Origin: a virus | Lineage: Duplodnaviria > Heunggongvirae > Uroviricota > Caudoviricetes | Reading direction: 5' to 3' (one strand) | Virus record (IMG/VR): IMGVR_UViG_2639763153_000002 | DNA: 64,000 nt | Shown: in pieces, positions 7,492-48,403 of the stretch | How the letters are laid out: each line of letters opens with the position of its first letter | Numbering within the stretch: position 1 is the stretch's first letter | Notes under the pieces: model-generated | Told to the model about the DNA's origin: nothing | Seen by the model: only the letters and a program-made list of their open reading frames with translations | The model's database searches: none | Program-made: the position numbers and the translations under genes

Positions 7492-7583
7492 AGTGCGTTC
7501 CTAGATCGGTAATTTGACATTGTGGATAGATAGCATATCCGAAATGAACATTTCATGTTTCTTTCATCGCACAGAAGTAACAC

Positions 7584-7829
7584 ATGGCAGAAATCACACC
7601 AGCAGAACAGATCCGCCTGAATCTGCTTTCCACCCTGAACTACGACACCGCAGCGGCTGGTAAGGCTATTGAGTTCGTCCAGGATAGCCCGCTCAAATAT
7701 CAGCTTTTCATCCAGCAGTACAGCCGCGTGACAACTGAATCCGAAGTGGTGGCACGGACCATCAAAGCGGTTCAGGAGTCGACCGAAGCGCTGGCGCTGT
7801 TTGATACCGGCGCAGAGCAGGCAAGCTAA
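7584..7829 (+). CDS. Conserved small phage protein (paralogue of 48030..48275 in prophage B)
   Basis: 81 aa. Shares ITPAEQIRL, NYDTAAA and TEALALFDT with the prophage B gene. Same position before HNH-terminase. Confidence 0.55.
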   Translation: MAEITPAEQIRLNLLSTLNYDTAAAGKAIEFVQDSPLKYQLFIQQYSRVTTESEVVARTIKAVQESTEALALFDTGAEQAS

Positions 7830-7884
7830 GGCATTACAGCAGGCACTCGCTGAGCGCCAGTGATAATGCTCAAGGAGCGATTAC

Positions 7885-20400: not shown

Positions 20401-20830
20401 CAACGCTCTCGGAGGCGTTTACGATTCTCCGTCACTTTCTGCCTACAGCAATGGTGTTTACAGCACTCCCCAATATTTTGCGTTTGCGAAAGGTGCGGGT
20501 GTATTCGGCGAGGCCGGGCCGGAAGCCATCATGCCGCTTACCCGTGGCGCTGATGGTTCGCTGGGGGTCAAAGCTGTTGGGCGGGAATCGCCGGCGGTAC
20601 AGAACGCTGCGAGGCAGCAGCAGGAAAGACAACTTCTTTCAACTGGTGACATCAACGTCAATTACCACCTCACTGGTAAACCGGATGATGTGATGATGCA
20701 GACATTGAATGCCCACGGCCGCAGCCTGGCTAAACAGATAAAATCTGAACTGACGAGCGACGTAAACAATCCTCAAAATGCATTCGGTAGAGCACTTTAC
20801 TCCAACCTTCAGCCCAAAAAACCACGATAA
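17450..20830 (+). CDS. Tail tape measure protein
   Basis: 1126 aa, Ala/Gly-rich coiled coils. Position after G/T. Confidence 0.9.
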   Translation: MATLRELIIKVSANSQSFQTEIARASRMGADYYKTMQNGGRQAAASVRETRRSVAELTDQMESAKATALGLTGAFAGAFATGHLISLADEWNSVNARLKQASQSTDDFTSSQKQLMDISQKTGTSFSDNANLFSRSAASMREYGYSSSQVLDITEAISTGLKLSGANAQESSSVITQFSQALAQGVLRGEEFNAVNESGDRVIRALAAGMGVARKDLKSMADQGQLTIDKVVPALISQLGKLRNEYGELPQTVSSSATKVENAFMQWVGGANEASGATNTLTGLLDGVANNIDQVATAAGALVAVGAARYLGNMALGASSATAGIINAAKSEVALAEAQVRGTQVSTARARAAVYRAQQALAAARGTDAQAAAEKRLSLAQELLNRNIQARVSAQTALNSVTAVGSRLMGGALGLVGGIPGLVLLGAGAWYTMYQNQEQARLSAQEYANTIDSVREKTKSMSLPEVSDNETKTRQALEEQNRLVDAQASKVKSLKEEIAGYQYVLSNPGPTTSGGFMINHLTSVETVTRGLEEATSALAVEQERLAQMLAKSESIQSVLEGIENRRIALIRQQAAEQNSAYQSLLMMNGEHTEFNRLLGLGNNLLMARQGLVNAPVRLPQVDLTTQQTAALEKSRRDLALSKLKGEDKERARLGYAADDLGLTNDPQFQTGRQELINNGLNEWRNNQENKPKPKGRHGKTEAEKTEDTYTRLIKQQREQIALSSQNTELAKMKYQVTQGELSSLEKSKKETLLHNAALIDQKNIAEQLKTFREGLADSNAAARERGNIDFLGAGQGDKARDRMKEMADIRADFLRQQRDLQRDFSRGQISEDLYKKQTEALKTALAERLDIQEEYYKKTDEQQSDWRAGISDSLMNYADQASDLSSMAATATSEILDATTNSISNNLTNVLTGATSFKDGMSNIFSSLGETVIKTLIQMATQALITKAIMASFGGGAGGLFGSLFGGAASSGTAIQSAGANFSFNALGGVYDSPSLSAYSNGVYSTPQYFAFAKGAGVFGEAGPEAIMPLTRGADGSLGVKAVGRESPAVQNAARQQQERQLLSTGDINVNYHLTGKPDDVMMQTLNAHGRSLAKQIKSELTSDVNNPQNAFGRALYSNLQPKKPR

Positions 20831-20850
20831 CCTGCCCGGAGGGAATATTC

Positions 20851-21303
20851 ATGGCAGATATTTTCTACCCGGACGAATACCTGCCCATGCCGCTGATGGA
20901 CGGGTACGGGTTTAAGCCCATATCACCTTTACTGCGAACGGAGATGACGTCCGGTCGCGCTCAACAACGAAGGCGATATACCTCAACACCCACCCAGGCA
21001 TCGGTTAAATGGATTTTTAAAACTGATGCTCTGGCACAGGTGTTTGAGGCGTTTTTCAGGGATGCGCTTAAAGATGGCCAGTCCTGGTTCTATCTGAAAC
21101 TCCAAACCCCAATAGGGGTAAAGCCCTATAAAGCCAGGTTCGTGGATATTTACGAAGGGCCGACGCTGGTCGCGCCAAAATACTGGCAGTACAGCGCAAC
21201 GCTGGAATTATGGGAGCGCCCGTTACCGCCTTCAGGCTGGGGAAATTACCCGGAATGGCTGGCGGGCCAGTCGTTACTGGATATTGCGCTAAACAGAGAG
21301 TAG
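20851..21303 (+). CDS. Minor tail protein (M-like)
   Basis: Paralogue of 35244..35723. Position after TMP. Confidence 0.7.
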   Translation: MADIFYPDEYLPMPLMDGYGFKPISPLLRTEMTSGRAQQRRRYTSTPTQASVKWIFKTDALAQVFEAFFRDALKDGQSWFYLKLQTPIGVKPYKARFVDIYEGPTLVAPKYWQYSATLELWERPLPPSGWGNYPEWLAGQSLLDIALNRE

Positions 21304-21310
21304 CCGAAGC

Positions 21311-21787
21311 ATGACAATTCTTGAGCGACTATATGCCAGCAGCGGATCGGAGGTTATTCACGATACGCTGCAGATATCAGCAGGCGATGATAACTACTGG
21401 CTAACCAGTGGTTGGGATGACGTTTCAGTGACGCTGGAAAATGGTCAGCCGGTGACGTTTGAGGCCAGCGCGATAGATATCGCCTTACCAGCCAGGAACG
21501 CCGACGGGACACAGGATTTAAAGTTTGCTATCAGCAATATTGACGGACGGGTTTCAGAGGCGATCGATAAAATTCTGGATGAAATGAAATCAGCCACGCT
21601 GACATTCCGGCGGTACATTTCATCCGATCTGTCTGCTCCGGCATCATCACCGTATACGCTCGATATCAAATCCGGCTCCTGGACCCCGACAGCAGTTCAG
21701 GTCACGGCAGGCTATATGAATGTCCTCAAAACAGCCTGGCCCCGTAAACGTTACAACCTCGCCGAGCATCCGGGCTTACGTTACTAA
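21311..21787 (+). CDS. Minor tail protein (L-like)
   Basis: Paralogue of 34775..35257. Confidence 0.7.
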   Translation: MTILERLYASSGSEVIHDTLQISAGDDNYWLTSGWDDVSVTLENGQPVTFEASAIDIALPARNADGTQDLKFAISNIDGRVSEAIDKILDEMKSATLTFRRYISSDLSAPASSPYTLDIKSGSWTPTAVQVTAGYMNVLKTAWPRKRYNLAEHPGLRY

Positions 21788-21799
21788 CCTGAGGCAAAT

Positions 21800-22180
21800 A
21801 TGTTTAATCCTGATAAATACCGTTCAGTCACCTGGCTGAAGGGCGGGCGCGTATTTCCGCAGCTCGACTGCTTCGGCATTGTAAATGAGATACGTCGCGA
21901 CCTTGGGCTACCTGAATGGCCGGATTTTGCAGGTGTGACCAAAGACGGCGGGGGCCTCGACCGGGAAGCGAGAAAGCTGATGCTTTCGCTGAAACGTTGT
22001 GCCCCGTGTGAAGGCGCCGGAGTGGCTTGCTATTCGGGCTCAACGGTTTCCCATGTTGGGATTGTTGTGATGCTCGATAACCAGCTGCAGGTCGCGGAAT
22101 GTAATCCAGGCTCGGGGGTTACGTTTCTGCCTCTGTCGCGATTTATCCGCCGCTTTAACAGCGTGGAGTTCTGGCAATGA
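21800..22180 (+). CDS. Tail assembly protein K-like, NlpC/P60 (C40) peptidase
   Basis: Catalytic Cys/His context (DCFGIV..., ...HVGIV). Paralogue of 34385..34765 at about 85 percent aa identity. Confidence 0.8.
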   Translation: MFNPDKYRSVTWLKGGRVFPQLDCFGIVNEIRRDLGLPEWPDFAGVTKDGGGLDREARKLMLSLKRCAPCEGAGVACYSGSTVSHVGIVVMLDNQLQVAECNPGSGVTFLPLSRFIRRFNSVEFWQ

Positions 22181-25100
22181 CGATAAAGTTTTACCCGTCC
22201 CGGCTACCGGGTGAACCCCTTGAAACGCACGAGCATGGTGTGCTGACGCTGCATGAGTGGATGAGCAGAAATGTCCCGAGCTATTCACAGGATAAAACTC
22301 ATCCTGTCGTGATCGAGCTGAACGGCCAGGCAGTCCCCCCGGCGGAATGGCCGTTATGTTTGTTGCGGCCAGACAGTGACGTGCGGATATATCCCATTCC
22401 TTATGGCACGGGTCTTGAAATTGTCGCGTGGGTTTCGGTGGCCGTATCCATTGCGTCTACGGCCTATGCATTATTCTTTGCCCCAAAACCAGAGCTGGGC
22501 GGTTTTTCATCCAGTAACGCTTCATCGCTGGATCTGAACCCGGCGCGGGCAAACACCGCAAAACTCGGTGATCCCGTTAGGGAGGCTTTTGGGCGAAACC
22601 GGATTTATCCGGATTACCTGGTGCAGCCGGTAACGCGATTCGACCCCGCTGATCCCACCAGAATGACGGTAGAAATGTTTGTCTGCCTTGGATATGGGCG
22701 TTTCTCCTATACCGGTGGAGATTTTCGGGTAGGGGAAACTCCGGCGTTGACCTTAGGCGAGGGCTTTTCATATACCAGCTATGGGCCCGGCGATAATGTG
22801 GCCGGGGATCGTCGCAGTGAGATATGGTTCAACTCAACGGAAGTTGGTGGAACGTCGAGCGGCAGCGGCCTCGATATGGCTCAGACTGCCCCTGAAGCCA
22901 GTGATATCGTTGCTGATGCCATGACCGTCAGCGGTGCCTCTGTCTCGTTTTCTGGCCTCGATGTCGATGATGATAATGATGAAGACGAGGATGAGAACAA
23001 ACTTCCTCCTGGCTGGATCGCCGGTGCAATTGTCACCCTGAAAGCGCCAGTGAATTATCAGGTATCCATCGAGGGCGGTTTTAACGTGCTGACAGGCGAC
23101 GTCGTGTCAGAGATTGCGCCATTCAGCGGAATGCCTGTCACCCTAACGTTTAACGGTACTGACTATGACCTGCAGATCGCCACGTATACCCCTCACCAGG
23201 ACGCCGTTCCGGGAACAGGGGGAGCGACTGCGGTATTACGCGCCAGTGCCTCGCCGTCAACGTATGACTTTACGACAACCAGCCAGACCTTTGCTCTGAC
23301 CTGGCAGGGTATCACCTATACCATATCTTTGGTCGCCAACTACGGCACAATGTCTGGCTTGCTCGCAGCGATTAATGGCGGGTTGAATGGTTCGGGGCTC
23401 ATTGCTCAGGATGATGGCGGCGTGATACGTATCGTCGAGATCTCCAGCCCCTGGCGTGGCGGTTCCATTACGTCATCTTTCCTGCCTGCGTCAGTATTTG
23501 GTGACAGCCCGGTATTTACTGCTGGTGCAGCCTCCAGCGGCGGAAGCCCTGCGGTAACAGCCAGCGTCACGCTGGCATACGATTCTGGCACTGCCTTTTC
23601 CGGATTGCCGGAAGGAACCCAGCGGATTTCCTTGGCGCATCGTGGCAACGAATACCAGATAGCGTCTACTGATGGCCCCTCTGCGACCGTACAGCGTGTG
23701 GTTAACGGTGTCGTTGACAGCACCTGGTCAGGCTTTATGACCCGTACCGTCGTGGATTTTGCCGCGTCTGGTATTAACGATAATGAAACCTGGCTAGGCC
23801 CCTTTCTGGCCTGCCCGCAAAATGAAGTTGTGGACGCCTTCGAGGTCAACTTTGCTTTCCCAAACGGAATTTGTGGGTTCCAGAACAACGGGAATAAGCG
23901 GGTCCGCCATGTCGAGTATGAAATCCAGTATCGCGTTTATGGTTCCGGATCAGGGTGGACGAGTAAGCCAGGGGTTTACGCGCTTAAAAACGTTAATGGC
24001 CTCGGTTTTACAGAGCGTTTTGATCTGTCCTCTCCCGGGCTGGTGGAGGTTAGATGCCGCCGCCGTAACGAGCAGGGGAGCAACAACGCGAGAGACAGCA
24101 TGTTCTGGCAGGCGCTCAGAGGTCGTTTGCTTTCCCGTCCAACCTCCTACGCAGGTATATCAACAATAGGGATCACGGTTGAAACCGGCGGCCAGCTGGC
24201 GGCGCAGTCAGACAAGCGTGTGAGTGTTGTCGCCACGCGAAACTATGATGGCGGTGGTGACAGGACAATCAGCGGTGCGTTCCTGCATCTTGCCCGCAGT
24301 CTGGGATATCGCGACGACCAGATCGACATTGCGGGGCTCAGTACGCTGGAGGCCACCTACTGGACGCCAAGGGGAGAATATTTTGATCACCAGGCAAGCA
24401 GTGACAGCACGTCAGCAAAGGATATTTTCGACAAAATAGCCGAGGCTGGCATGGGGTATTTTCTGCTATCTGACGGGTTGCTTTCTGTCGGGAGAGAGGG
24501 AGTCAAAAGCTGGACAGGGATCATTACACCTCAGGATACCGTCGAGGAAATGCAGACGTCATTCAGGGTCCCGTCGGAGGATGATTTTGATGGCGTGGAT
24601 GTGAAATATATCAACCCTGTGACCTGGGCGGAGGAAACCGTACAGTGCCGGACGCCGGAAAATCCTTTTCCGCGCAAAACGGAGGCATATACCATTGATG
24701 TTGCCATGACTGCAGATCGCGCCTGGCGTATCGGGATGCGTCGGTTAATGAAATATCTCCACCAACGCCGAACGTATACGGCTACGACTTCAATGCTGGG
24801 ATGGTGTCATGACTTCGGTGATCACATCATTTTGTCCGACGACATTTCAACCGGGAAAACCCAAAGTTGCCTGATTGACGCGATGATTTACGACTTCCAG
24901 GAAATTACGCTGCACGTCACGGAGCCACTGGACTGGAGCTACGCGAATCCTCGCTGCTGGATACAGTTTCAGGACGGTCGACCATCATCGCGAATGCTCA
25001 CGCCGCAACGGGTAGATGATTTCACGCTGACGGTGCCGTACAACGACGACCTGCATCCCGGCGACTGGATTATGGACGACCCAGATATTGATCTGCCGAA

Positions 25101-25254
25101 GTTATTGTTCTGCGACAGTGAAAAGGGTGCGCGGCATGGGATAGTCCAGGAGGTTGCTCCATCGGGTGACAGCAACTGCCAGATTACTGCACCTGAATAT
25201 AAAGAAATTTTCTACCAGTACGACGACGCCACATACCCCGGCGACGCCGCGTAA
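22177..25254 (+). CDS. Host specificity/central tail fibre protein J with fused N-terminal I-like domain
   Basis: 1025 aa. N-terminal about 150 aa I-like, then J-like. Acidic D/E stretch. Paralogue at 31320..34388. Confidence 0.9.
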   Translation: MTIKFYPSRLPGEPLETHEHGVLTLHEWMSRNVPSYSQDKTHPVVIELNGQAVPPAEWPLCLLRPDSDVRIYPIPYGTGLEIVAWVSVAVSIASTAYALFFAPKPELGGFSSSNASSLDLNPARANTAKLGDPVREAFGRNRIYPDYLVQPVTRFDPADPTRMTVEMFVCLGYGRFSYTGGDFRVGETPALTLGEGFSYTSYGPGDNVAGDRRSEIWFNSTEVGGTSSGSGLDMAQTAPEASDIVADAMTVSGASVSFSGLDVDDDNDEDEDENKLPPGWIAGAIVTLKAPVNYQVSIEGGFNVLTGDVVSEIAPFSGMPVTLTFNGTDYDLQIATYTPHQDAVPGTGGATAVLRASASPSTYDFTTTSQTFALTWQGITYTISLVANYGTMSGLLAAINGGLNGSGLIAQDDGGVIRIVEISSPWRGGSITSSFLPASVFGDSPVFTAGAASSGGSPAVTASVTLAYDSGTAFSGLPEGTQRISLAHRGNEYQIASTDGPSATVQRVVNGVVDSTWSGFMTRTVVDFAASGINDNETWLGPFLACPQNEVVDAFEVNFAFPNGICGFQNNGNKRVRHVEYEIQYRVYGSGSGWTSKPGVYALKNVNGLGFTERFDLSSPGLVEVRCRRRNEQGSNNARDSMFWQALRGRLLSRPTSYAGISTIGITVETGGQLAAQSDKRVSVVATRNYDGGGDRTISGAFLHLARSLGYRDDQIDIAGLSTLEATYWTPRGEYFDHQASSDSTSAKDIFDKIAEAGMGYFLLSDGLLSVGREGVKSWTGIITPQDTVEEMQTSFRVPSEDDFDGVDVKYINPVTWAEETVQCRTPENPFPRKTEAYTIDVAMTADRAWRIGMRRLMKYLHQRRTYTATTSMLGWCHDFGDHIILSDDISTGKTQSCLIDAMIYDFQEITLHVTEPLDWSYANPRCWIQFQDGRPSSRMLTPQRVDDFTLTVPYNDDLHPGDWIMDDPDIDLPKLLFCDSEKGARHGIVQEVAPSGDSNCQITAPEYKEIFYQYDDATYPGDAA

Positions 25255-25285
25255 TACCCCATAACAACCCCTAATTAACTCTTTT

Positions 25286-25337
25286 CGCTCAAACCCTCGT
25301 TTGGGCGAACGCCTTTTTTGGAGCAAAAAACATGGCC
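25286..25337. repeat. Perfect about 52-bp inverted repeat (left copy), spanning the J-fibre intergenic region and fibre start codon
   Basis: CGCTCAAACCCTCGTTTGGGCGAACGCCTTTTTTGGAGCAAAAAACATGGCC equals the reverse complement of 31239..31290. Confidence 0.8.
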
Positions 25338-26075
25338 CTGACTCCTCCACTCGGCTCGACGACACCAGAGGTCTTGTTACGTAATGCTGGCGATCTTGAT
25401 CGCGCCATGAACAGTGAAGCTGATACATGGCAAAACCGAGGTGGTGATGAGCTCCCCACCATGAAGGGATATCAGAAACAGGTGGATGCCATCACTGATG
25501 ATGTTTTTCAGGCCAGGGATACGGCTGTTGAAGCAGCTGCAACGTTACCCACTAAACAACAGTTCCTTGAGCTACAGGTGGAAGTCGACGGTATCACGGC
25601 CGATCCTGCAAACGCGATTGCAAACATTACCATTCCGGCGAAAGACTTTGACCTTGCTGTAGGGAGTGCCAGTTTTGGCATGATAGCCAGTCGCCTCGCG
25701 GGCTGGCAGTTCACTCATGGGGTAAACGCATCCATCACCAAAATGATAGACCTGCCGTCTCACTGGTCAAAAATGCGTATATCCCTGATCTGGACAAACC
25801 TCGTTGCTAACAACAATTTCAATGTGAGCCTTTCAGGTGAGCGGCATAGCTGGTCTGCCGGTGAGTCTTTCAATCAGGAGCCTGCAGGTTATGCTGCGGT
25901 CGTTCCGGTTAATGGCACACCGTTTATTGCAGTGGAAACACAATTAGCGCTTGATCTCACCGTTGACCCTACACGGCATACTACCCTTCGCATCGGACGA
26001 AATGGCGCGTCTTCCAGTGATACCCTGCCCACTGCCATCGCATTACTCGCCGTCAGACTGACAAAGGTGGCTTAA
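25332..26075 (+). CDS. Tail fibre/spike protein, N-terminal J-docking domain
   Basis: N-terminal M..PPLGST.P.VLL shared with the 908-aa fibre of prophage B. Confidence 0.6.
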   Translation: MALTPPLGSTTPEVLLRNAGDLDRAMNSEADTWQNRGGDELPTMKGYQKQVDAITDDVFQARDTAVEAAATLPTKQQFLELQVEVDGITADPANAIANITIPAKDFDLAVGSASFGMIASRLAGWQFTHGVNASITKMIDLPSHWSKMRISLIWTNLVANNNFNVSLSGERHSWSAGESFNQEPAGYAAVVPVNGTPFIAVETQLALDLTVDPTRHTTLRIGRNGASSSDTLPTAIALLAVRLTKVA

Positions 26076-27311
26076 ATGAGTGTTTACCAGTCATGGCGGA
26101 CGGCCTGGCGAACACCAGGCGTGTTAAGAAATTATCCTCCTAATCCGCTTTATGTGGATACGGTCAGAGGAAAAGCGTCGGGAAAAGGGTCAGTCGATGA
26201 TCCAGTGAACAGCCTCGGTCTGGCGCAGGGGTTATGCCTCGGTCTTTCCGATTATGAAATAAAGATTATTGCCCCGGAAAGTTCTCCACTACGACAGGAG
26301 GTTGTATTTAACACCACCGAGAATGTGACCTTATCCGGCGTTGATGGTGAACCGTGGTACACCTTTGGATCTGAAGAACATACATCCGGGTGGACTCAGA
26401 ACGGTCAGATTTTTCAGAAAACACTGGGGTATACCTCTGTGCTTCAGGTGGTCGTTACATCAATGACGGAGACGGTCGGTGACAGAGATGATTTTCTTTT
26501 TAAACTACTACAAAACACCTCCACGCCGACCACGCCAGCAGCTGGTGAGTATGGATATGCAGGAGGCATTATTTATGTCCGGTTACCGGATGATTCAGAC
26601 CCTGCTCTGCACTCGATTGAAATATCCCGGCGTAATTTTGGGGTAGCGACAACCGGGTTTGGACTCCTTACGGTGAATGACTGTATCGCGCGCTATTGCA
26701 TGATTAATGGCATTTCCTGCGGGTTATCCACGCAACCGGCAGGCACCGGCTTCCTGACCGTCAATGACTCCGTTATTGAGTACTGTGCAAATGCCGGTGT
26801 TGGTGGTACGGGGCGAAATGAGTTGATCATCTGTAATAACGTGCGTGCCTGGCGGATTTCAAATGATGGCTTCGGGCAGCATGCGCCTGTAGGCGGTGCC
26901 GGAAAAATGATCCTGAATGGCTGTAATGGTAGTTATAACGGCGATCAGGCAGGTCAGTCTGCCCAGGGGGCTTCAAACCATGAGTTTACGAAAATGGTAA
27001 TCAACGGAGGGACATTCAATTTTAATGTCTCAGGTGGAATGGTGGCTATTGAAAATGCGCAGTGTGATATTCACGGCGACACAAAATACGGGCCTGTTGT
27101 GATGGACGGGAATATGAGGCTGGGGAATACGGCAGGAACTATCGCCAGCCAGGCTGGATGCGCCTGGCTGAACTATGCCACAGGGATAGTGACGGGAGAT
27201 GTAACCGTTAAAAACGGTCATGGTGTGGGCGTTCGCCGTGGGCCAGATGCCGTTGTGGAAGATATCGCAACGATCCACTCAGTCAACAACGCGCTGCCGG
27301 ATATCCTGTGA
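26076..27311 (+). CDS. Tail spike with right-handed parallel beta-helix (pectate-lyase-like). Candidate polysaccharide depolymerase
   Basis: Repeated GxxxN/NDS-V-I-EYC-type beta-helix rungs. Gly/Asn-rich. Confidence 0.55.
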   Translation: MSVYQSWRTAWRTPGVLRNYPPNPLYVDTVRGKASGKGSVDDPVNSLGLAQGLCLGLSDYEIKIIAPESSPLRQEVVFNTTENVTLSGVDGEPWYTFGSEEHTSGWTQNGQIFQKTLGYTSVLQVVVTSMTETVGDRDDFLFKLLQNTSTPTTPAAGEYGYAGGIIYVRLPDDSDPALHSIEISRRNFGVATTGFGLLTVNDCIARYCMINGISCGLSTQPAGTGFLTVNDSVIEYCANAGVGGTGRNELIICNNVRAWRISNDGFGQHAPVGGAGKMILNGCNGSYNGDQAGQSAQGASNHEFTKMVINGGTFNFNVSGGMVAIENAQCDIHGDTKYGPVVMDGNMRLGNTAGTIASQAGCAWLNYATGIVTGDVTVKNGHGVGVRRGPDAVVEDIATIHSVNNALPDIL

Positions 27312-27318
27312 GGTAAAA

Positions 27319-27537
27319 ATGACAGTATGCAGATTATGTCAGTGTGAGCCAATGGTGATGACAAAGCCGGAAACTGACGGTGCGATCAGTTTCTATGTTT
27401 ATTACGTCGAGTGTTCCGGATGTGGTGTTGGTACTAAACGATTTTCGGAACAATCATTCAATGCAGAAGAGGCGATTCAAAACGCTCAGGCACAGTGGGC
27501 GCTGATGAATGCAGAAAAAGAGGTTGTGAGTAATTAA
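27319..27537 (+). CDS. lar: Lar-family restriction alleviation protein
   Basis: 72 aa. CRLCQC...ECSGCG cysteine pattern and EEAIQNAQAQW C-terminus match Lar-family layout. GAGG RBS. Confidence 0.55.
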   Translation: MTVCRLCQCEPMVMTKPETDGAISFYVYYVECSGCGVGTKRFSEQSFNAEEAIQNAQAQWALMNAEKEVVSN

Positions 27538-27564
27538 AAAAATCCCCCGGAGGCACACCGGGGG
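27535..27564 (-). terminator. Rho-independent terminator for the prophage B late operon (CCCCCGG-7nt-CCGGGGG followed by T7 on - strand)
   Basis: Read from sequence. Marks the A/B junction. Confidence 0.55.
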
Positions 27565-27672
27565 AAAGGTGATAAATGACATTATTGCTGTGTGCGTCTT
27601 TGCGCACGGTGTATCTTCTAAGAAAATTCCTGGTGTTTCCAGATTTTTCTTGCCCGGCTGAGTGCTGCAGGT

Positions 27673-28509
27673 TTAAGGCAGCGCCGATGGGCTGGTAGGT
27701 ATGGTGTCACCTGCGTATTTCCCGCCAGCGTTAAAGTTGGCATTAAACAGCCGCTGCTCTGCTGCCACAATATCAGCCTGTGCCATCCCGGATGCGTCAA
27801 TATCAATCAGGTGCGTCCGGTACATTACAAACGACTTGCAATTATTATTCACCAGCGCGCCGAAACCCGACGCCGCCCCCCACACAGGCATATCCTGATA
27901 ATAAATAGTGTCTGTAAAGTCAGTTCCGTTTTTATCCGATTGCAGGCTGAACTGCGCCGGGCCCGCAGAAACGGCGTTCGGTAAACGGGCTACGATCAGG
28001 CGGTTCGTTGAGGGGGACGTTTGTGACGAAATCAGCACCTCAGTGGTCTGCGTTGCAGGTGTTCCACTGCCAACACGGGTAACTTGATAGTGCATAATGA
28101 GCAGGAATTTATGATCGTGCTGATGTTCGGCCACATACGGCATGATACCCGGGCAGGTAAACCGCCCTCGGTGACCAGATACCTGATTCACCAGTGACAG
28201 AATACCGTGAACCCCTCCTTTTGCCGTCCTTTCAAATTTCGCCTCCGGCGCAGAACCGGTGGTGACCAGCGTGTTATTCCATGCCACCTTCAAATCAGCC
28301 GCGGTTTTCCCTGTCAGTTCTGCGGCCACTTCTGCCGCCAGGTTATCGGTATATACCGTTGTTCCGGTTGCCGAGAAATTGAAAGCGGGGTCTATCATCA
28401 CGGCGTCCAGCAAAAACAACGATCCGGGATTCAGCCCCGGATAGTTGTAGAGGATCGGCAATCTTGAATCCGTGAAATTCGCCCCATAGAGATTAACGAC
28501 CTGTCCCAT
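27673..28509 (-). CDS. Tail fibre-associated protein (distal fibre/receptor-binding partner)
   Basis: 278 aa downstream of the fibre gene. No recognisable motif. Confidence 0.5.
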   Translation of the reverse strand: MGQVVNLYGANFTDSRLPILYNYPGLNPGSLFLLDAVMIDPAFNFSATGTTVYTDNLAAEVAAELTGKTAADLKVAWNNTLVTTGSAPEAKFERTAKGGVHGILSLVNQVSGHRGRFTCPGIMPYVAEHQHDHKFLLIMHYQVTRVGSGTPATQTTEVLISSQTSPSTNRLIVARLPNAVSAGPAQFSLQSDKNGTDFTDTIYYQDMPVWGAASGFGALVNNNCKSFVMYRTHLIDIDASGMAQADIVAAEQRLFNANFNAGGKYAGDTIPTSPSALP

Positions 28510-28517
28510 TCTTCACC

Positions 28518-31244
28518 TCATTTGAAAAAATAATTGTTGTTCAGGATGTCAGCAATACCGTCCCGTGCCGGGATCGGTGTGTATCCTTCGCCCAGGTCAA
28601 AACCCGCACCGCCAAACGCCAGCGCCTGGCCTCCGGCCTGGCTGAGATGGGTGATATCGATGGCAATTTCTGACCAGGAGCCGTTGTTATTCACGATGAC
28701 ATTTCCCACCGTACCGGCTGCAATCCGCAGATAGTAATCAGCATGTGAGCCACCGGAAGGCGTCCCGGCGTTACTCCAGGTTCCCTGGTAGGTCAGCATG
28801 TTGGTTGTGAGTCCTGAGGGCATCAGCGCGCTGGCAAAAAATGACCACGGCAGCACGCCATATTTCGCGGCAACCTGTTTTTCAGTCATACCAGGGAAAG
28901 TCGGGTCTATGGCATCCGTCGCCGCAGACAACATGATCTCGTACACTACGGCGTGTTGTTCGGGGAACATTCGGCGATACCACTCCGTGAGCTCATAGAG
29001 CGGGCCGGTTCTGGCAAACTGATTTTCATGCTGCGTATAAACCATCCGCACGCCGTTCCATGTCGCCTGACGTTGCCCCATCACAGTAAGGAACAGCACG
29101 CGAATGAACATCGCCCAGGCCAGCTTATGCAGCTTTATGGACGCCTCACGTACCTGGGCGGCCCCCAGATCTGTCGTCGGCTGGTTGTTCTGCCCATGCC
29201 ATGCGCCTATTACCTGCCCAGCCCAGCGATCACCCCAGGATAAAGCCTCTTGCTGGAGCATTCCCACCACTTGATCTGACGTGGAACCGCCATATGAGCG
29301 GACCTCTCCAATACGGCCAGTCGCCGCGATAATCGTTGTGCCAGAGGAACCACTGCCAAACATCGAGTCGCCGATCAGCAGCAGCTTCTGGCAGATCCCC
29401 TGACGCATAGCGTTAGCAACCTGTGCTTTCATCCGCACTGCAACCGACGTCGCCGCTTTATCCGCACGCCTGAACTCCCATTCATCCGCGTTCGCAGCAC
29501 ATCGAAGGCTGATACTCTGCCCGGCAGCAACCGTTGAAACTGGTTCTCCGGCGATCTTTACCCAGTTAACACCATCAAAGATGGCGTAATCGCCAGCCAC
29601 ATACGTTTCCCCGCCAGCGCTCCCGCCAGCTGATGCCTGGTAGAGGACATTCGGACGGTTTGAGCCAGGAAGCCCTGAAGCCGGGGAAAACTCCCCCCCA
29701 TACAGCAGGAGATCACTGGTGGAGTTCAGGACGGCAAATTGTGGCTGCAGAAATCCGCCGCCTGCAGTTTGTAAGGTCAGGAATAACAGCGCGTCACCAG
29801 GAGAGAGCGTCATTCCAGCAAATGTCCCGGCCGAGGTGACCAGATACCAGGTATCGTTCTTTCGCGCTGCTCCAGAGCCAGGTGAGCGCTGAATACTCCA
29901 GCTGGTGCCGTCATAGACCAGCAGATCGCCAAGATAGACGTTCTGCCCGTTCCAGTTTCCCGGCGCAGTTTCCGAAACGCTGGAGTTGGTGTTATATGCC
30001 TCGTAGCTGTAATAGTCGCCAGCTGAAAACGAGCCGGAGGGTGTTGATATCGTCGGGCTGGTCAGTCGTCCCCTGCGGGTGATGGAGGCAACTGAACCGG
30101 GATTAAAAGGAACACCCTGCGCCTTACCGGCAACTTTGAGGCCGAACGACCGCCGATATTCCAGCGCCGTGCCGGTGGTATTCACACCGTACAATGCCCG
30201 GCAGATATGGGATGACAAAGGAACCCATCCCGATCCGTCTTTGTCGTTGGTGCGGGCTGTAAGTTCTGCAATTCGTGATCGTATTGCATCCGGATAAACG
30301 CTCACGACGTCCTGAGCTACCGGCATCAGCGACCCTCGTAATGAATCGGTGAGGTTGTCGGCTGTGATGACGTTTTTACCAATCGCCAGCAGCGGAATCT
30401 CTACCTGGCCCGTAACGGTAACCCGCATCGCACAGCGCCGGGTAACGGGATCAACCCAGGCCATGACATAGCCACTATCCGGAGTCAGGTAAACAGGGAC
30501 AAGCCCCTGCAGATTTGGTGACAGCATCTCCGGTTCAATGGCACCGTCTGCGATTTTCAGCAGCGGAATATCAACCTCACCACTCACCGAAACCCGCAAC
30601 GCCATGCGGCGGGTAACAGGATCTATCCAGGCCATAATGTATCCGGTGGACGGATCAAGGGTCATGGGAATTAACCGTTGAATTTCCTCCTGCAACGCCG
30701 GGCGTTCAATCGACCCGTTCTGGTACTGCAGCAGGGGAATTTCAACCTGGCCGGTAACGGTTACGAGGATGCAGGAACGCTTCGACTCCGGATCGCGAAA
30801 CGCCAGTACATAACCGGTTTCCGGGTTCATGACTTCAGGGATCAGGCCAGACGATTTCAGGCTGTTGATAACATTATCGGTATAGCCCTTTGCCGCCATC
30901 TGTTTGCCGGTGGTCGTGAGTACACCACTGATATTTTTATACTCATCAGCCAGAACGTCACTGAGCGGGCTCAGTACATAAATCACTGCACCATCAGGAA
31001 TGTTTGCGATATCCGCCTGGGCTTTCGACAGGTCTGTATATTGTTTTCCCAGAGGGATCAGGTTTTCCCGCGTATTTTCTACGATTGCCGCGAATGTCTG
31101 CAGCATCAGGCGCCAGGAGTCCAGCGGTTGCCCGGCACGGTCGTTAACCGTACCGGCCGGACCGTTAACGAGTTCGTCCAGGCGAGTGGCGTTATCGAGC
31201 AGCACCGCGGGCGAAGTGCTCCCAAGAGGCGGATCAAAGGCCAT
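28518..31244 (-). CDS. Tail fibre protein: J-docking N-terminus, 3 tandem about 42-aa repeats, C-terminal SGNH/GDSL-type hydrolase domain
   Basis: Repeats GY[VI][LM]A[FW].DP..[KR]R...[LR]V.V.G.V[ED]IPLL. LLLIGDSMFGSGSSG resembles GDSL block I. Confidence 0.75.
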   Translation of the reverse strand: MAFDPPLGSTSPAVLLDNATRLDELVNGPAGTVNDRAGQPLDSWRLMLQTFAAIVENTRENLIPLGKQYTDLSKAQADIANIPDGAVIYVLSPLSDVLADEYKNISGVLTTTGKQMAAKGYTDNVINSLKSSGLIPEVMNPETGYVLAFRDPESKRSCILVTVTGQVEIPLLQYQNGSIERPALQEEIQRLIPMTLDPSTGYIMAWIDPVTRRMALRVSVSGEVDIPLLKIADGAIEPEMLSPNLQGLVPVYLTPDSGYVMAWVDPVTRRCAMRVTVTGQVEIPLLAIGKNVITADNLTDSLRGSLMPVAQDVVSVYPDAIRSRIAELTARTNDKDGSGWVPLSSHICRALYGVNTTGTALEYRRSFGLKVAGKAQGVPFNPGSVASITRRGRLTSPTISTPSGSFSAGDYYSYEAYNTNSSVSETAPGNWNGQNVYLGDLLVYDGTSWSIQRSPGSGAARKNDTWYLVTSAGTFAGMTLSPGDALLFLTLQTAGGGFLQPQFAVLNSTSDLLLYGGEFSPASGLPGSNRPNVLYQASAGGSAGGETYVAGDYAIFDGVNWVKIAGEPVSTVAAGQSISLRCAANADEWEFRRADKAATSVAVRMKAQVANAMRQGICQKLLLIGDSMFGSGSSGTTIIAATGRIGEVRSYGGSTSDQVVGMLQQEALSWGDRWAGQVIGAWHGQNNQPTTDLGAAQVREASIKLHKLAWAMFIRVLFLTVMGQRQATWNGVRMVYTQHENQFARTGPLYELTEWYRRMFPEQHAVVYEIMLSAATDAIDPTFPGMTEKQVAAKYGVLPWSFFASALMPSGLTTNMLTYQGTWSNAGTPSGGSHADYYLRIAAGTVGNVIVNNNGSWSEIAIDITHLSQAGGQALAFGGAGFDLGEGYTPIPARDGIADILNNNYFFK
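30440..30830. repeat. Three tandem about 126-bp coding repeats inside the fibre gene
   Basis: Three similar DNA units (gcagcggaat... ...gtaacggt/gaaac...) seen by eye, matching the protein repeats. Confidence 0.65.
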
Positions 31245-31290
31245 GTTTTTTGCTCCAAAAAAGGCGTTCGCCCAAACGAGGGTTTGAGCG
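31239..31290. repeat. Perfect about 52-bp inverted repeat (right copy)
   Basis: Reverse complement of 25286..25337. Confidence 0.8.
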
Positions 31291-31319
31291 AAAGAAAAGT
31301 TGAAAGGGATTTTTTGGTA

Positions 31320-34300
31320 TTAAGCAGCGTCGCCAGGGTATGTGGCGTCGTCGTACTGGTAGAACGATTCCAGGTATTCTTTAGCGGTGACCTGGCAGGT
31401 TCCGTCTGATTGCGGGGCGATCTCCTCTACAATGGCGTCGTAGACGTGGCGCGTTGAGCCGCAGAACACCAGGCGGATCGGCTCGATGGTTGCCGACGAC
31501 AGGTCAACCTTCATCGGGTCATCAAACTCGCTCAGGTGCGGGACTGACAGCTGAAAATCACCCACCCTGCTCGCCACCATCAGCCCGGATGCAGAGCCAT
31601 CCTGATAACGAATCAGCGCGCGGGGATTTTCGAAAGACCAGTCCAGCGGCTCCGTGACGGTGAACGTTGTCACGCCACCAGCCGTTGTCATCGCCTCCAC
31701 CAGACAGGAAATCGTGTTGTTACCCGGAATATCATCCGTGAGCACAATGCGATCGCCCGTGTTGTAGCACAGCGCGTCCAGCTCGGTAGTGGTCTGGAAC
31801 GTCACCCGCTGCTGCAGGTATTTCATCAGGCGACGCATGCCGATCTGGTAGGCGTGATCCTGATTCAGTACCCCATCGAGTTTGTAATTCTCGATTTTCA
31901 CTGGCGTGGGATTGTCCGGCGTCCGGCATTTAACGGTCTCCTCCGCCCAGGTAGTCCCGTTGATGTATGTCACGTCGACGCCATCAAAATCATCGTCGGA
32001 CGGTACGGTAAATCCGCTCTGCAGCTCCTCCACCATCTCATGCGGAGTGATCACGCCAGTCCAGGGCTTAATCCCCTCACGGTTGACCGTCGCCAGGCCA
32101 TCACTCAGCAGAAAACGTGACTTCCCGGCATTGGCTATCTTCTGCAGCATTTCCAGCGCTGAGATACTGTCGCCGGTAGCAAAGTCGAAATTTTCGCCCC
32201 GTGGCGTCCAGTACGCGGATTCCAGCGCAGTGATGGTGTCGACGTCCATCTCCAGCCCCAGCGAGTTTCCGACATGCATCAGAGCCCCCGAGATAGTTCT
32301 GGCCGTTCCGGTTTCATAGGCGCGGGTGGCCACAACGTTTACGCGGCGGTCCGACTGCGCCGCCAGCTTCCCGCCCGTCTCGACGGTCACCGCCATCAGC
32401 GACACGCCGGGATAGGATGAAGGTCGTGTCAGCAGACGCCCGCGCAGTGCCTGCCAGTACATCGAATCCCTGGCGTTGTTTGAGCCCTGCTCATTGCGCC
32501 GGCGACAGCGAACCTCTACCAGCCCTGGTGAGCTGAGGGTGATCCGCTCAGTGAATCCCAGCCCGTTGACGTTTTTAAGCGCATACTCTCCCTGGTGACT
32601 CACCCACCCCGAACCGGAACCGTAGACGCGATACTGAATCTCCCACTCAACGTGGCGGATCCGTTTTTTGCCCTTGCTGTCAAAGCCACAGATGCCGTTC
32701 GGGAAGGAGAAATTCACCTCGAACATATCGACGGTCTCATTTTCAGGGCAAACCAGGAACGGCCCCAGCCAGCTCAGCGTGTCGTTAAGACCAGTGGCCT
32801 CATAGTCGATCATCGTCCGGGCGGTGAATCCCGGCCATGACTCATCAACGGCACCATTAACCAGGCGCGCCACCGTCGCCGTCGTGCCGTCAGCTGACAC
32901 AATCCGGTACTCATTCCCGCGGTGAGCAAGTGAAAGCCGTTGCACCCCCTCCGGCATCCCGGAGAATGCGGTGCCCGTGGCAGAGTTATAGGCGAGTGTC
33001 ACATTCGCCGTTACCGCCGGGCTGCCGCCGGTTGATGCCGTGCCGGAGGTGTAAACCGGGGCATCACCGAAAACAGCTGCAGGCAGCGAAGAGGACGTGA
33101 TCGCCCCACCCGCGAACGGACTGGCCGACTCGGTTATCAGTACGGTGCCGCCGTTGTCCTGCGCAACCAGGCCGGAGCCGGTGAGTCCCTCGGTGATGGC
33201 CGCCAGCACTCCCGACATCGAGACGTAGTTAGCCACCAGCGACACCGGGTAGGTAACCCCCTGCCAGGTGATCGTGAACGTGCTGGAGCTGGTCGAAAAA
33301 TCGTAGGTGGTCGGGGCCGCACTGGCCTGGACTTTTGCCGCACTCCCCCCGGTGCCGGGCACTGCAGCCTGACCGGGGGTATATGACGCGATAAACAGAT
33401 CGTAATCGACAGAGTTAAACCCCAGCGTCACCGGCATACCTACTACCGGCGCGATCTCCGTCAGCAGCGGGCTTGCGATAACGCTGTATCCGGCCGCCGT
33501 GGTGATCTGGTAGTTCGCCGGGGCTTTAAGTTCGACCACGGCGCCAGCGACCCAGCTGGGCGGCAGTGCGTTATCGTTCTCGTCATTATCGTCATCATCA
33601 TCCGTATCCAGCCCCGTAAACGTCACGCTCGATCCGGAGACGGTCATGCTGTCTGCGATAATGTCGTCTGCGTCCGGCGACGTCTGGGCCATATCCAGCC
33701 CGGTGCCGGATGACGTCCCGCCAACTTCGGTGGAGTTGACCCAGTTTTCGCTGCGCTCATCACCGGAAACGTCCGCGCCTGGCGGGTAATGGGTGCTGCT
33801 GAATCCCGGTAGCGTTGAAGCTGGCGTACTGCCAACCCTGATATCGCCATTGGTATAAATCAGATCACCGACACCGAGACACAGCAGCATCTGGACGCGC
33901 ATTTTCGTAGGATCGGCGGCATCAAACCGGGTAACCGGCTGCACCACATAATCAGGGTAGATACGCACCCGGCCAAAAACCTCACGAATGGCATCACCGA
34001 GTTTTGCGGTATTCGCCTTTGCCGGGTTCAGGTCGAGACTCCGCCCTGTAGATGAGGTATAGCCTCCCGTATCGATGTTGCTCATCATAAACAGCGAATA
34101 GGCTGCAGCGGCAACGGAGATACCGACGCCGATCCACGCGATTGTGGCTGCCTCCAGCCCGAAGGGAACCGGATAAAGCCTGACATCACTATCAGGGCGA
34201 ATCACACACTTAGCCCACTCGCCTGGCGGAATTAACAGCCCCTCAACCTCAACGGTCAGCGGTGGGACATCCCGATCCTCGTAGCCTTCAACATTTGCCA

Positions 34301-34388
34301 CCAGCCAGCTGCGAATACTGGTTACACCATGCTCATGCGTTTCGAGTGGTTCACCGGGAAGCCGGGACGGGTAAAAACGAATGGTCAT
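31320..34388 (-). CDS. Host specificity protein J with fused I-like N-terminus (prophage B)
   Basis: 1022 aa. Long identical stretches with 22177..25254 (e.g. GLVEVRCRRRNEQGSNNARDSM). Identical C-terminus FYQYDDATYPGDAA. Confidence 0.9.
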   Translation of the reverse strand: MTIRFYPSRLPGEPLETHEHGVTSIRSWLVANVEGYEDRDVPPLTVEVEGLLIPPGEWAKCVIRPDSDVRLYPVPFGLEAATIAWIGVGISVAAAAYSLFMMSNIDTGGYTSSTGRSLDLNPAKANTAKLGDAIREVFGRVRIYPDYVVQPVTRFDAADPTKMRVQMLLCLGVGDLIYTNGDIRVGSTPASTLPGFSSTHYPPGADVSGDERSENWVNSTEVGGTSSGTGLDMAQTSPDADDIIADSMTVSGSSVTFTGLDTDDDDDNDENDNALPPSWVAGAVVELKAPANYQITTAAGYSVIASPLLTEIAPVVGMPVTLGFNSVDYDLFIASYTPGQAAVPGTGGSAAKVQASAAPTTYDFSTSSSTFTITWQGVTYPVSLVANYVSMSGVLAAITEGLTGSGLVAQDNGGTVLITESASPFAGGAITSSSLPAAVFGDAPVYTSGTASTGGSPAVTANVTLAYNSATGTAFSGMPEGVQRLSLAHRGNEYRIVSADGTTATVARLVNGAVDESWPGFTARTMIDYEATGLNDTLSWLGPFLVCPENETVDMFEVNFSFPNGICGFDSKGKKRIRHVEWEIQYRVYGSGSGWVSHQGEYALKNVNGLGFTERITLSSPGLVEVRCRRRNEQGSNNARDSMYWQALRGRLLTRPSSYPGVSLMAVTVETGGKLAAQSDRRVNVVATRAYETGTARTISGALMHVGNSLGLEMDVDTITALESAYWTPRGENFDFATGDSISALEMLQKIANAGKSRFLLSDGLATVNREGIKPWTGVITPHEMVEELQSGFTVPSDDDFDGVDVTYINGTTWAEETVKCRTPDNPTPVKIENYKLDGVLNQDHAYQIGMRRLMKYLQQRVTFQTTTELDALCYNTGDRIVLTDDIPGNNTISCLVEAMTTAGGVTTFTVTEPLDWSFENPRALIRYQDGSASGLMVASRVGDFQLSVPHLSEFDDPMKVDLSSATIEPIRLVFCGSTRHVYDAIVEEIAPQSDGTCQVTAKEYLESFYQYDDATYPGDAA

Positions 34389-34765
34389 TGCCAGAACTCC
34401 ACTTTGACAAATCGCCGCTTAAACCGCGGCAACGGCAGAAAGGTGACGTTCGTTCCCGGATTGCATTCCGCCACATGCAGCAGACCATCGATACTGACCA
34501 CGATCCCTACGTGGGTGACAGTCGACCCGGAATAACAGGCCACCCCGGCCCCTTCGCAGGGTTCGCAGCGCTCAAGGGTAAGCATCATCCTGCGCGCTTC
34601 CCGGTCGAGGCCGCCGTCGTCTTTGGTGACCCCTGCAAAATCGGGCCAGACGGGTAAATTCAGGTCGCGGCGTATCTCGTTCACAATGCCGAAACAGTCA
34701 AGTTGCGGGTATACGCGCCCGCCCTTCAGCCAGGTGACTGAACGGTATTTATCAGGGTTAAACAT
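34385..34765 (-). CDS. Tail assembly protein K-like C40 peptidase
   Basis: Paralogue of 21800..22180. Confidence 0.8.
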   Translation of the reverse strand: MFNPDKYRSVTWLKGGRVYPQLDCFGIVNEIRRDLNLPVWPDFAGVTKDDGGLDREARRMMLTLERCEPCEGAGVACYSGSTVTHVGIVVSIDGLLHVAECNPGTNVTFLPLPRFKRRFVKVEFWQ

Positions 34766-34774
34766 TGGGATTCC

Positions 34775-35257
34775 TTAGCTGATATAACGCAGTCCGGGGA
34801 ATACAGGGAGCGTGTAGCGGTATCGCGGCCAGGCGGTATCGAGGATATTCATGTAGCCCGCAGTGATCTGCACCTCTGTCGCCGTCCAGGAGCCCGACTT
34901 GATTTTCAGCGTATACGGCACTTCCGCAGGGGCCGCTAAATCCGTGGAGATATAACGCCGGTACGTCAGAAATGCAGACAGACGGTTAGCCAGCGCATTG
35001 CGGATCGCCGTGGACACAACACCATCGATATTGCACAAGGCAAATTTGAGGTCCTGCGTGCCGTCCGCATTGCGCGCCGGCAGCGCAATGTCTATCGAAC
35101 AGGCGGTAAACGTTACGGTATCGCCGTTCTCCGTCGTTGCCGTGATGCTCTCGTAACCCTGGCACAGATAATGGACGTCAGAACCAATGGTGATCTGCAG
35201 CGTTTCAATGATCACCTCCGGGCCGCTGCTGGCGTAGAGGCGTTTAATCTGCGTCAT
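34775..35257 (-). CDS. Minor tail protein (L-like)
   Basis: Paralogue of 21311..21787. Confidence 0.7.
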   Translation of the reverse strand: MTQIKRLYASSGPEVIIETLQITIGSDVHYLCQGYESITATTENGDTVTFTACSIDIALPARNADGTQDLKFALCNIDGVVSTAIRNALANRLSAFLTYRRYISTDLAAPAEVPYTLKIKSGSWTATEVQITAGYMNILDTAWPRYRYTLPVFPGLRYIS

Positions 35258-35723
35258 GCTTCGGCCACTCCTTATTCAGGGCGATATCAAGCAACGAACT
35301 TCCGACTATCCATTCCGGGTAATGCCCCCATCCAGACGGTGGCAATGGGCGCTCCCAGAGTTCTACTGGCGCGGTATATCTCCAGTAAAATCCGCCTTCT
35401 GGAGTGGGACCTTTATAAATATCCGTGAAACGACACACGTAATTTTTCAGCCCTACAGGCGTTAATAACGGTATGTTGAACCACGCCGCCCCATCTGATA
35501 ACTCATCCCGAAACCACGCCTCAAAAGCCTGCGCCTGGGCGTCAGAAAAAATCCAGGCCAGATCTGTTTGGGTTGGTGTCGAGGTGTAGGCACGCCGCTG
35601 TCGTGCCCGGCCAGTTACCATCTGAGTCCGTTTCAGAGGAGATACAGGAGTTAAACCAAAACTCTCTTTAAGCGGTCCAGGCAGGTAAGCGGAGGGGTAA
35701 TAAAGCGTTGTGGTGATAGCCAT
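35244..35723 (-). CDS. Minor tail protein (M-like)
   Basis: Paralogue of 20851..21303. Confidence 0.7.
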   Translation of the reverse strand: MAITTTLYYPSAYLPGPLKESFGLTPVSPLKRTQMVTGRARQRRAYTSTPTQTDLAWIFSDAQAQAFEAWFRDELSDGAAWFNIPLLTPVGLKNYVCRFTDIYKGPTPEGGFYWRYTAPVELWERPLPPSGWGHYPEWIVGSSLLDIALNKEWPKHDAD

Positions 35724-47958: not shown

Positions 47959-48029
47959 TTACTTGCCCTCTCGATTAAGTAACGCATCGACATTATCACA
48001 GGCACTCAGTGAATGCCTGCTGTAATGCC

Positions 48030-48275
48030 TTAGCTGACCTTCTCAGCGGCAGTATCAAACAGCGCCAGCGCTTCGGTCGCTTCCTGGATTGCCTTACGGG
48101 TCTTCGAGACAATCTCACTTTCCGTGAAAACACGATCGAAAGAGTCAGCGAATAGCTCAGACTTCAGATAGCTGTCGCCTACCCAGTCAATGGCCAGCTT
48201 GGCCGCTGCGGTGTCATAATTAACTTTCTTGATTATATCCAGGCGGATTTGCTCGGATGCAGTGATCTCTGACAT
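48030..48275 (-). CDS. Conserved small phage protein (paralogue of 7584..7829)
   Basis: Shared motifs and position. Confidence 0.55.
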   Translation of the reverse strand: MSEITASEQIRLDIIKKVNYDTAAAKLAIDWVGDSYLKSELFADSFDRVFTESEIVSKTRKAIQEATEALALFDTAAEKVS

Positions 48276-48403
48276 GTCTTACCTCTGTGCGATGTGGGGA
48301 GTATTAGCGAAGCCATTCGACAAAATAGCCTCTGTGATGCTTTTGCATTTATCTTTGCCGTGTGTACAAGCTGAACGGTTTCCTTACGTATGCCTGTTAC
48401 GCA

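Follow-up and report, generated by a model that had tools for sequence, protein, structure and literature searches.

A predicted Gin-type receptor-binding cassette of lambdoid Klebsiella prophages and its place in an apparent twin-prophage junction

The 64,000-nucleotide (nt) stretch of the IMG/VR virus record IMGVR_UViG_2639763153_000002, to which we refer as the window, is 100% identical to LBID01000005.1 of the assembly GCA_000982205.1 and carries two lambda-like siphovirus prophages, here called phage L and phage R, whose tails face each other across two sets of tail-fibre genes. According to our analysis the segment at 25284-31292, of 6,009 base pairs (bp), is to be read on sequence grounds as a receptor-binding cassette of the lambdoid Klebsiella prophage R, served by a serine invertase of the Gin/Hin/Pin family. 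In its natural copies the cassette genuinely flips, with breakpoints in the predicted crossover sites. It is a switch of a known kind, widespread in Klebsiella, and it has a modest architectural twist, namely that the site is intergenic and whole genes are swapped. The twin arrangement of the two prophages around this cassette may well be an assembly chimera.

The two tail modules and the genes between them

The prophages and their tail modules are laid out as follows, labels such as L030 denoting loci or contigs fetched for comparison.

6-551 to 22177-25254, + strand: phage L, from the Q antiterminator (6-551) through methylase, lysis genes, terminase, portal, capsid, a tape measure of 1126 amino acids (aa) and M/L/K-like genes to J (22177-25254)
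20851-21303, + strand: phage L minor tail protein, M-like, 150 aa; open reading frame (ORF), same gene in the natural phage L loci L030 and L032
21311-21787, + strand: phage L minor tail protein, L-like, DUF1833, 158 aa; ORF, PF08875 on the identical gene in L005 and L030
21800-22180, + strand: phage L K-like tail assembly protein, 126 aa; ORF
22177-25254, + strand: J_L, tip attachment/host specificity protein, 1025 aa; PF24801 FNIII-A_GpJ and PF13550
31320-34388 to 62819-64000, - strand: phage R, from J (31320-34388) through an 817-aa tape measure, head genes, Q, DnaB and a cI-like repressor to a P4-type integrase (62819-64000)
31320-34388, - strand: J_R, 1022 aa; the identical protein is encoded in natural phage R loci of either cassette orientation
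34385-34765, - strand: phage R K-like protein, 126 aa; ORF
34775-35257, - strand: phage R L-like protein, 160 aa; ORF
35244-35723, - strand: phage R M-like protein, 159 aa; ORF

Both prophages thus possess a tail tip module of lambda type, composed of a J/TipJ protein with FNIII-A_GpJ and Phage-tail_3 domains, an upstream DUF1833 L-like gene, small K- and M-like genes and a tape measure. The M/L/K/J modules of the two strands, considered paralogous in a preliminary description of this DNA, are indeed so, with protein identities of 58% (M-like), 65% (L-like), 83.3% (K-like, close to the 85% given before) and 62% (J), and the tape-measure proteins are only 18% identical. J_L and J_R end in the same 14 residues (FYQYDDATYPGDAA), as described. 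The inverted K-J homology of about 4 kilobases (kb) was also recovered, at a DNA identity of only 65-71% (21205-22241 versus 34324-35363, and 22528-24767 versus 31807-34037). The last 28 bp of the J genes, on the other hand, were wrongly given as identical: the last 16 nt differ at 3 positions, and an identical run of 29 bp lies further in, 16-44 nt ahead of the stop codons. Other short homologies between the prophages were found at 4755-4863 versus 50726-50835 and at 7565-7868 versus 47991-48294, with 86% and 69% identity.

Between the two J genes lie the fibre sets, designated A and B:

25332-26075, + strand: set A gene 1, 247 aa; conserved N-terminal region, a candidate anchor, followed by a unique part
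26076-27311, + strand: set A gene 2, 411 aa; no family or PDB match
27319-27537, + strand: set A gene 3, 72 aa, Zn-ribbon; weak Lar_restr_allev match (E 0.0054), under the Pfam cut-off
27543-27611, no strand: cassette centre, convergent terminator-like hairpins between the sets, from folding
27673-28509, - strand: set B gene 2, 278 aa; phrog_18370, weak 'minor tail protein' match
28518-31244, - strand: set B gene 1, 908 aa; the same conserved N-terminal candidate anchor, the rest unique
25284-27374, + strand: segment common to the natural L and R cassettes, that is the crossover site (ix) with set A; about 2.1 kb at about 99.5% identity by alignment

Two different fibre sets with some 130 bp and a terminator between them had been noticed before, and this holds: sets A and B stand 135 bp apart, with hairpins in between, and are unrelated except for the N-terminus of their first genes. 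Of the first 92 residues in that N-terminus, 23 are invariant among four proteins that otherwise differ, and the first-gene N-termini share PHROG matches. The conserved region that was proposed as a J-docking domain is seen, and its anchoring to the tail tip is a suggestion. For the 247-, 411-, 278- and 908-aa proteins, and for J apart from the domains given above, neither Pfam nor PDB gave matches. A convincing promoter was not detected in the fibre operons.

Some peculiarities of these genes deserve to be recorded. Lying within the invertible segment, the 72-aa Zn-ribbon protein would be expressed in one orientation only, and the 3' part of its gene (from 27375) tells cassettes that combine sets B and A from those that combine set A with genes of 614 and 251 aa. 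The 908-aa fibre gene contains a 78-bp direct repeat of 78% identity (30387-30464 versus 30558-30635). The cassette centre at 27537-27651 shows 77-89% identity to short stretches in Proteus phage Mydo, Klebsiella phages Kpn_R1 and Kp4856-1 and E. coli phage vB_EcoS-733R5, which are otherwise unrelated, and it may be a boundary for half-cassette exchange. A functional element there, for example an enhancer, found no support: the corresponding place in the E. coli EC31 cassette, described below, has only 57 bp, and the window stretch itself resembles terminators.

Crossover sites, invertase and inversion in natural copies

The fibre sets are bracketed by inverted repeats:

25283-25337, no strand: left repeat arm, 55 bp, with the 26-bp candidate crossover site, a T-run, the Shine-Dalgarno (SD) sequence GGAG and ATGGCC of the first fibre gene
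31239-31293, no strand: right repeat arm, 55 bp, a perfect inverted copy of the left arm
25284-25309, + strand: ix-left, 26 bp, predicted Gin/Hin-type site, TTCGCTCAAACC-CT-CGTTTGGGCGAA
31267-31292, - strand: ix-right, the same 26 bp inverted, identical to ix-left

The repeat is perfect and includes the fibre ATG, as reported before, and its length is 55 rather than 52 bp. Judged from sequence, its outer 26 bp are the crossover sites of a Gin/Hin-type invertase. The 26-mer is made up of two 12-bp half-sites, TTCGCTCAAACC and TTCGCCCAAACG, which form an imperfect dyad around a 2-bp core, and the pattern TTN5AAACSNNSGTTTN5AA occurs in the 64 kb at just the two ix places, with 0.07 occurrences expected. 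When the 26-mer was scored along positions 30.5-36.7 kb of phage Mu, the best two positions were the two gix sites (16/26 and 15/26), and in a MAFFT alignment with the region upstream of gin the site falls on gixR, at equal distance before the GTG of the invertase. Each complete cassette locus that we fetched has precisely two inverted copies of the exact 26-mer. Between the J stop codon and the site lie 29 nt, and another 22 nt separate the site from the fibre ATG (25309 versus 25332); a crossover within the fibre gene, the hallmark of the Mu G and P1 C segments, is consequently absent.

Together with the following CGCCTTTTTT the ix site also scores as terminator-like (25284-25319 and 31257-31292; 11 pairs, a T-run, -19.8 kcal/mol, z -3.3), and a hairpin in this position, right before each fibre operon, might attenuate read-through unless RNA polymerase is Q-modified. 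A shufflon with additional crossover sites was ruled out, as only 2 sites exist at up to one mismatch. In a scan of species-representative genomes the site turned up in K. spallanzanii, Raoultella lignicola and an uncultured Klebsiella, and otherwise only as chance palindromes in actinobacteria; the junction is matched by 36 phage records, 34 of them from Klebsiella, nearly all at two places.

No invertase was found in the 64-kb window by tblastn with the invertase of E. coli EC31 (E<=10), and J_L holds the position where it would be expected from the natural loci. EC31 supplied the decisive lead: it contains the J gene and the 908- and 278-aa set at 97.6% identity, then a convergent second set, and past this set an inverted copy of the 26-mer and a serine recombinase of 187 aa. 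This locus (L001, NZ_CP060987, near yfdC) represents a Klebsiella-type prophage with set B, a BNR-repeat set and the invertase, and is evidence for cross-genus spread of such cassettes; among 5,426 complete E. coli genomes, 42 match part of 24800-31800, mainly the 3' end of J. In natural phage R the cassette, written with a slash between its two sets (908, 278 / 72, 411, 247), is flanked on one side by J_R and on the other by a 182-aa Resolvase+HTH_7 protein, past which follow genes for 140 and 93 aa, DinI and host type VI secretion system (T6SS) genes. Natural phage L has the cassette 247, 411, 71 / 251, 614-SGNH and an invertase of its own, also of 182 aa, followed by a 205-aa gene, NUDIX and umuDC. 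A protein of 182-192 aa with PF00239 and PF02796 adjoins the cassette in L001-L008, L010-L011, L020-L027, L029-L030, L036-L037 and L051, and in each natural copy examined the invertase stands about 45 bp beyond the distal site. The 182-aa protein matches the PDB Gin structures 4m6f and 3uj3 ('DNA-invertase') over its full length with E 5e-71, and the isolated phage KPP5665-2 has the same layout with the gene annotated as 'DNA invertase'. Homologues of this invertase are plentiful in Klebsiella (3,894 at E<=1e-60 among 8,000 candidates scored). The half-cassettes reassort: the partner of set A is either set B or the 614/251-aa set, and that of set B is either set A or a BNR set.

Inversion itself is observed by comparison between isolates rather than inside one culture. 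L020 and L023 carry the same prophage at the same T6SS flank; one locus has to be reverse-complemented before their flanks align, at 99.97% and 99.4% identity, yet the internal 6,009 bp between the outer site ends are 100% identical as they stand. The same inversion pattern relates L004 and L003 at the suf site, with a cassette of 5,101 bp. Among the contigs read with exact J_R, 7 have set B and 9 have set A beside J, and set A stands also beside J_L (L010). The likeness to a G segment suggested in the preliminary description is confirmed; its supposed independence of an invertase is contradicted by the gix-like sites and by a Gin homologue in every natural copy examined. Homologous recombination at the repeats, offered as the flipping mechanism, is not needed to explain flipping. 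The clean inversions between isolates end in the crossover sites. An evolution study of K. pneumoniae ST14 mentions in passing an inversion of about 5 kb with five ORFs beside a DNA invertase in prophage #4 (bioRxiv 10.64898/2025.12.17.694638), and invertases of the Pin family are known to switch tail-fibre genes in lambdoid E. coli prophages (PMC4272514, PMC12529663).

We propose the following scheme. Each fibre operon is wholly contained in the segment, with its own ribosome-binding site and probably without a promoter, and inversion would put either set B (908 and 278 aa) or set A (247, 411 and 72 aa) behind J in the late operon. As the operons carry their own ribosome-binding sites and show no convincing promoter, the set beside J may be expressed by read-through of the late operon and the set facing the invertase may be silent. 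The conserved N-terminal region would anchor whichever fibre is made to the tail tip.

Origin of the twin junction

The twin layout was found in GCA_000982205.1 only. Exact J_L is present in 16 contigs, of which 1 has it, and no other assembly examined has J_L in the place of the invertase; two full abutting prophages are thus a matter of one draft assembly and not a general arrangement. Collinearity of the window with natural phage L (L010, which has set A beside J) extends over 20001-27453, and that with natural phage R (L020, L022, L027 and L029, which have set B beside J) from 25284 past 37000; this overlap indicates that the L and R backbones are joined through the shared ix and set A of about 2.1 kb. 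Alignment with L005 runs out at 25337 and that with L020 sets in at 25284, apparent breakpoints at ix which are explained by the cassette orientation in these two loci. None of the natural continuations of R and L past their cassettes is present in the window. Genuine tandem prophages, with their own att sites and a junction at att or in host DNA, were not encountered, the junction being inside the fibre cassette.

Set A of the window proved to be a patchwork of L and R alleles with five switches:

25427, 25553, 25562, 25697 and 26018: L-type
26336 and 26789: R-type
26951: L-type
27035: R-type
27262: L-type
from 27375: R-type

The R-type allele set is that of all nine natural R cassettes, and the L-type set is that of the natural cassettes combining set A with the 614/251-aa set at 9 of the 10 sites, and at 26951 of L005 and L010 only. 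The 5' 700 bp of set A past the repeat carry phage-L alleles, so that the repeat is not the place where the prophages were joined, and a breakpoint at the 55-bp repeat was rejected by mapping of single-nucleotide polymorphisms (SNPs). Flanks on either side of the junction are 100% identical to relatives with pure alleles, which points to a recent mosaic. The recombinant haplotype 26951A/27035T was not found in IMG/VR or in JGI metagenomes.

The cassette region is hard to assemble. In most assemblies the cassette sits on separate contigs of 2-10 kb, Logan contigs end within the repeat, and one Broad scaffold is gapped there. Relatives with a 100%-identical phage L tail have the order J_L, 614, 251 / 411, 247, invertase; 4 contigs of this kind are complete and 9 break inside set A. 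These nine (L032, GCA_053966725.1, and 8 similar) break at the equivalent of 26790 in the 411-aa gene, one base from the SNP at 26789, which may hint at a second set-A allele or an insertion; it fits no simple assembler model, and we use it as a hint only.

A patchwork is what would be expected in a consensus of two collapsed or mis-phased copies, and this favours the explanation that the twin layout is a chimera formed by the assembler from two copies of set A. We infer such an artefactual origin with a probability of about 0.55, and the assembly error that the preliminary description had itself named as a refuting alternative becomes a serious candidate. Several observations weigh against our account of the cassette and its junction. 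Neither Ns nor ambiguity codes interrupt the contig where it crosses the two ix repeats and set A, as would fit long-range information or a single-copy set A, and the integrase end of phage R joins its usual host flank (DJ-1/PfpI, HD, SDR, LysR). Mixed haplotypes also occur at several diagnostic sites among the natural set-A alleles of IMG/VR, which means that mosaicism can arise biologically, and 2.1 kb of near-identity make an excellent recombination substrate. The exact invertase was absent from the cluster representatives in the invertase homologue search. Concerning the switch itself, the 5' coding region of the natural invertase aligns with that of gin, and a loose scan of it for the Fis enhancer gave no convincing conserved Fis-like pair, Fis sites being too degenerate for a call from sequence.

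The gap-free contig, the intact host flank of phage R and the ample length of near-identity also speak for a real junction, made by RecA-dependent recombination between the approximately 99.5%-identical set-A copies of co-resident L and R, as does the abundance of Gin-family invertases in Klebsiella; moreover, prophage-prophage recombination as a cause of inversions is well established in enterobacteria. Inverted copies would give a chromosomal inversion with the reciprocal product invertase_R, A / 614, 251, invertase_L, and direct copies a deletion. Both fibre sets would then lie behind a J gene and a late operon, with two intact sites usable by an invertase encoded elsewhere. We hold this explanation to be possible, and only tentatively so: a single crossover gives one allele switch and not five, the 100% identity of the flanks to pure-allele relatives leaves little time for repeated gene conversion, and the layout comes from one assembly. 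In Hin, Gin and Cin the recombinational enhancer bound by Fis lies inside the invertase gene, and if this is so here the enhancer is absent from the window; it would have been displaced at such a junction and flipping would probably be impaired. The further-reaching idea of a real junction with one Gin-type cassette shared by co-resident prophages, in which inversion by an invertase acting in trans would swap the receptor-binding sets between both phages at once and both sets would always be expressed, one by each phage, we regard as rather improbable.

Recombination by the invertase between the ix site proximal to J_L and the one proximal to invertase_R would draw on the fact that all four sites of both prophages are identical 26-mers in 54-bp repeats, and on the L005 and L020 match ends, which seem to put a breakpoint in the repeat. 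It predicts pure R-type alleles across set A with no switch, and the phage-L allele is found at five sites from 25427 to 26018 and again at 26951 and 27262, which makes this origin very unlikely. Hardly more credible is an invertase-free switch by RecA through the 55-bp repeats, or the repeat as a plain conserved J-fibre junction or terminator. It is true that 55 bp of perfect identity exceed the minimal RecA substrate, that the site with its T-run folds like a terminator, and that Klebsiella phage matches to the 3' end of J stop exactly at 25337. The same repeat, however, stands beside the invertase where there is no J gene, its half-sites fit the gix architecture, natural copies invariably have a Gin homologue next to them, and nearly equal orientations (7 versus 9) suit frequent enzyme-driven flipping better than rare recombination over 55 bp. 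To an origin other than all of these we give very little weight.

Neighbouring genes, implications and known systems

Some genes away from the junction may be of separate interest. Next to the phage L Q gene, at 588-1190 on the - strand, a 75-aa Phd/YefM-like antitoxin slightly under the Pfam cut-off is followed by a 116-aa ORF, likely a type II toxin-antitoxin pair. The N6/N4 DNA methylase gene of phage L (1961-3010) overlaps the start of a tRNA-Thr(TGT) gene (3001-3076). Between the lysis region and Q of phage R, on the + strand and opposite to the phage R genes, an insert of two genes (51342-53452) encodes a 372-aa protein of the NA37 family (nucleoid-associated) and a 330-aa protein with a RelA_SpoT domain; the insert may represent a toxin of the small-alarmone-synthetase type or a module for defence against phages. 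At 61075-62525, beside the P4-type integrase of phage R, a 275-aa SPFH/Band_7 protein and a 208-aa protein without assigned function are encoded, and these genes are kept in several prophages at the DJ-1/PfpI site.

By means of the natural switch a lysogen can release particles with either receptor-binding set, and the sets of other cassettes include SGNH-hydrolase, glycosidase and BNR-type proteins. This bears on prediction of host range from capsule and O-antigen, on prophage typing and on the design of phage therapy. For genome scanning it would be worth taking into account that cassettes half-shared by co-resident prophages trap assemblers and can yield striking but spurious 'twin prophage' layouts. 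If the junction were real, two phages would be coupled via one phase-variable host-range module with two intact sites, no invertase in cis and probably no enhancer in cis; this module could flip only with an invertase acting in trans, and probably at low efficiency, and once it had flipped the phages would exchange their receptor-binding sets in one step.

The closest parallel is the G segment of Mu with its invertase Gin. In both systems a small serine invertase, in our case a full-length Gin homologue, lies just outside the invertible segment, the inverted 26-bp dyad sites are found about 45-55 bp upstream of the invertase start, and two convergent alternative tail-fibre sets meet in a terminator region in the middle of the segment. 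Unlike in Mu, where the crossover lies inside gene S according to the record annotation and a constant N-terminus is joined to variable C-termini, and likewise unlike in P1, the site of the Klebsiella cassette is positioned ahead of the SD sequence and the ATG, and what is exchanged are whole genes together with their own candidate anchor domains. Mu is moreover a myovirus with a 3-kb segment, whereas the Klebsiella cassette of 5-7 kb belongs to a lambda-like siphovirus with a J tip protein.

Tail-fibre switches of the Pin family in lambdoid prophages, the P segment of e14 with PinE and PinQ/PinR of Qin and Rac (PMC4272514, PMC12529663), are similar as well, and phage L, like e14, appears to be located at icd, a fragment of which follows its end in L005. 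Inversion in e14 fuses stfE to alternative C-terminal ORFs (PMC4272514), whereas here complete multi-gene sets swap; and in contrast to e14, Qin and Rac the natural Klebsiella elements look like intact, inducible phages, for example KPP5665-2. The inversion in prophage #4 of K. pneumoniae ST14 (bioRxiv 10.64898/2025.12.17.694638) agrees with our cassettes in genus, size, five ORFs, fibre genes and invertase neighbour, and is very likely the same kind of cassette, by description rather than by sequence; unlike the present account, that paper defines neither sites nor mechanism.

The twin junction, if real, would belong beside rearrangements of another order. Recombination between co-resident prophages rearranges chromosomes, as in E. 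coli O157 and Streptococcus pyogenes, and the junction would resemble these cases as recombination between homologous segments of two prophages. It would differ from them in that the homologous segment is inside an invertible cassette, and the product would be one cassette shared by two tail modules.

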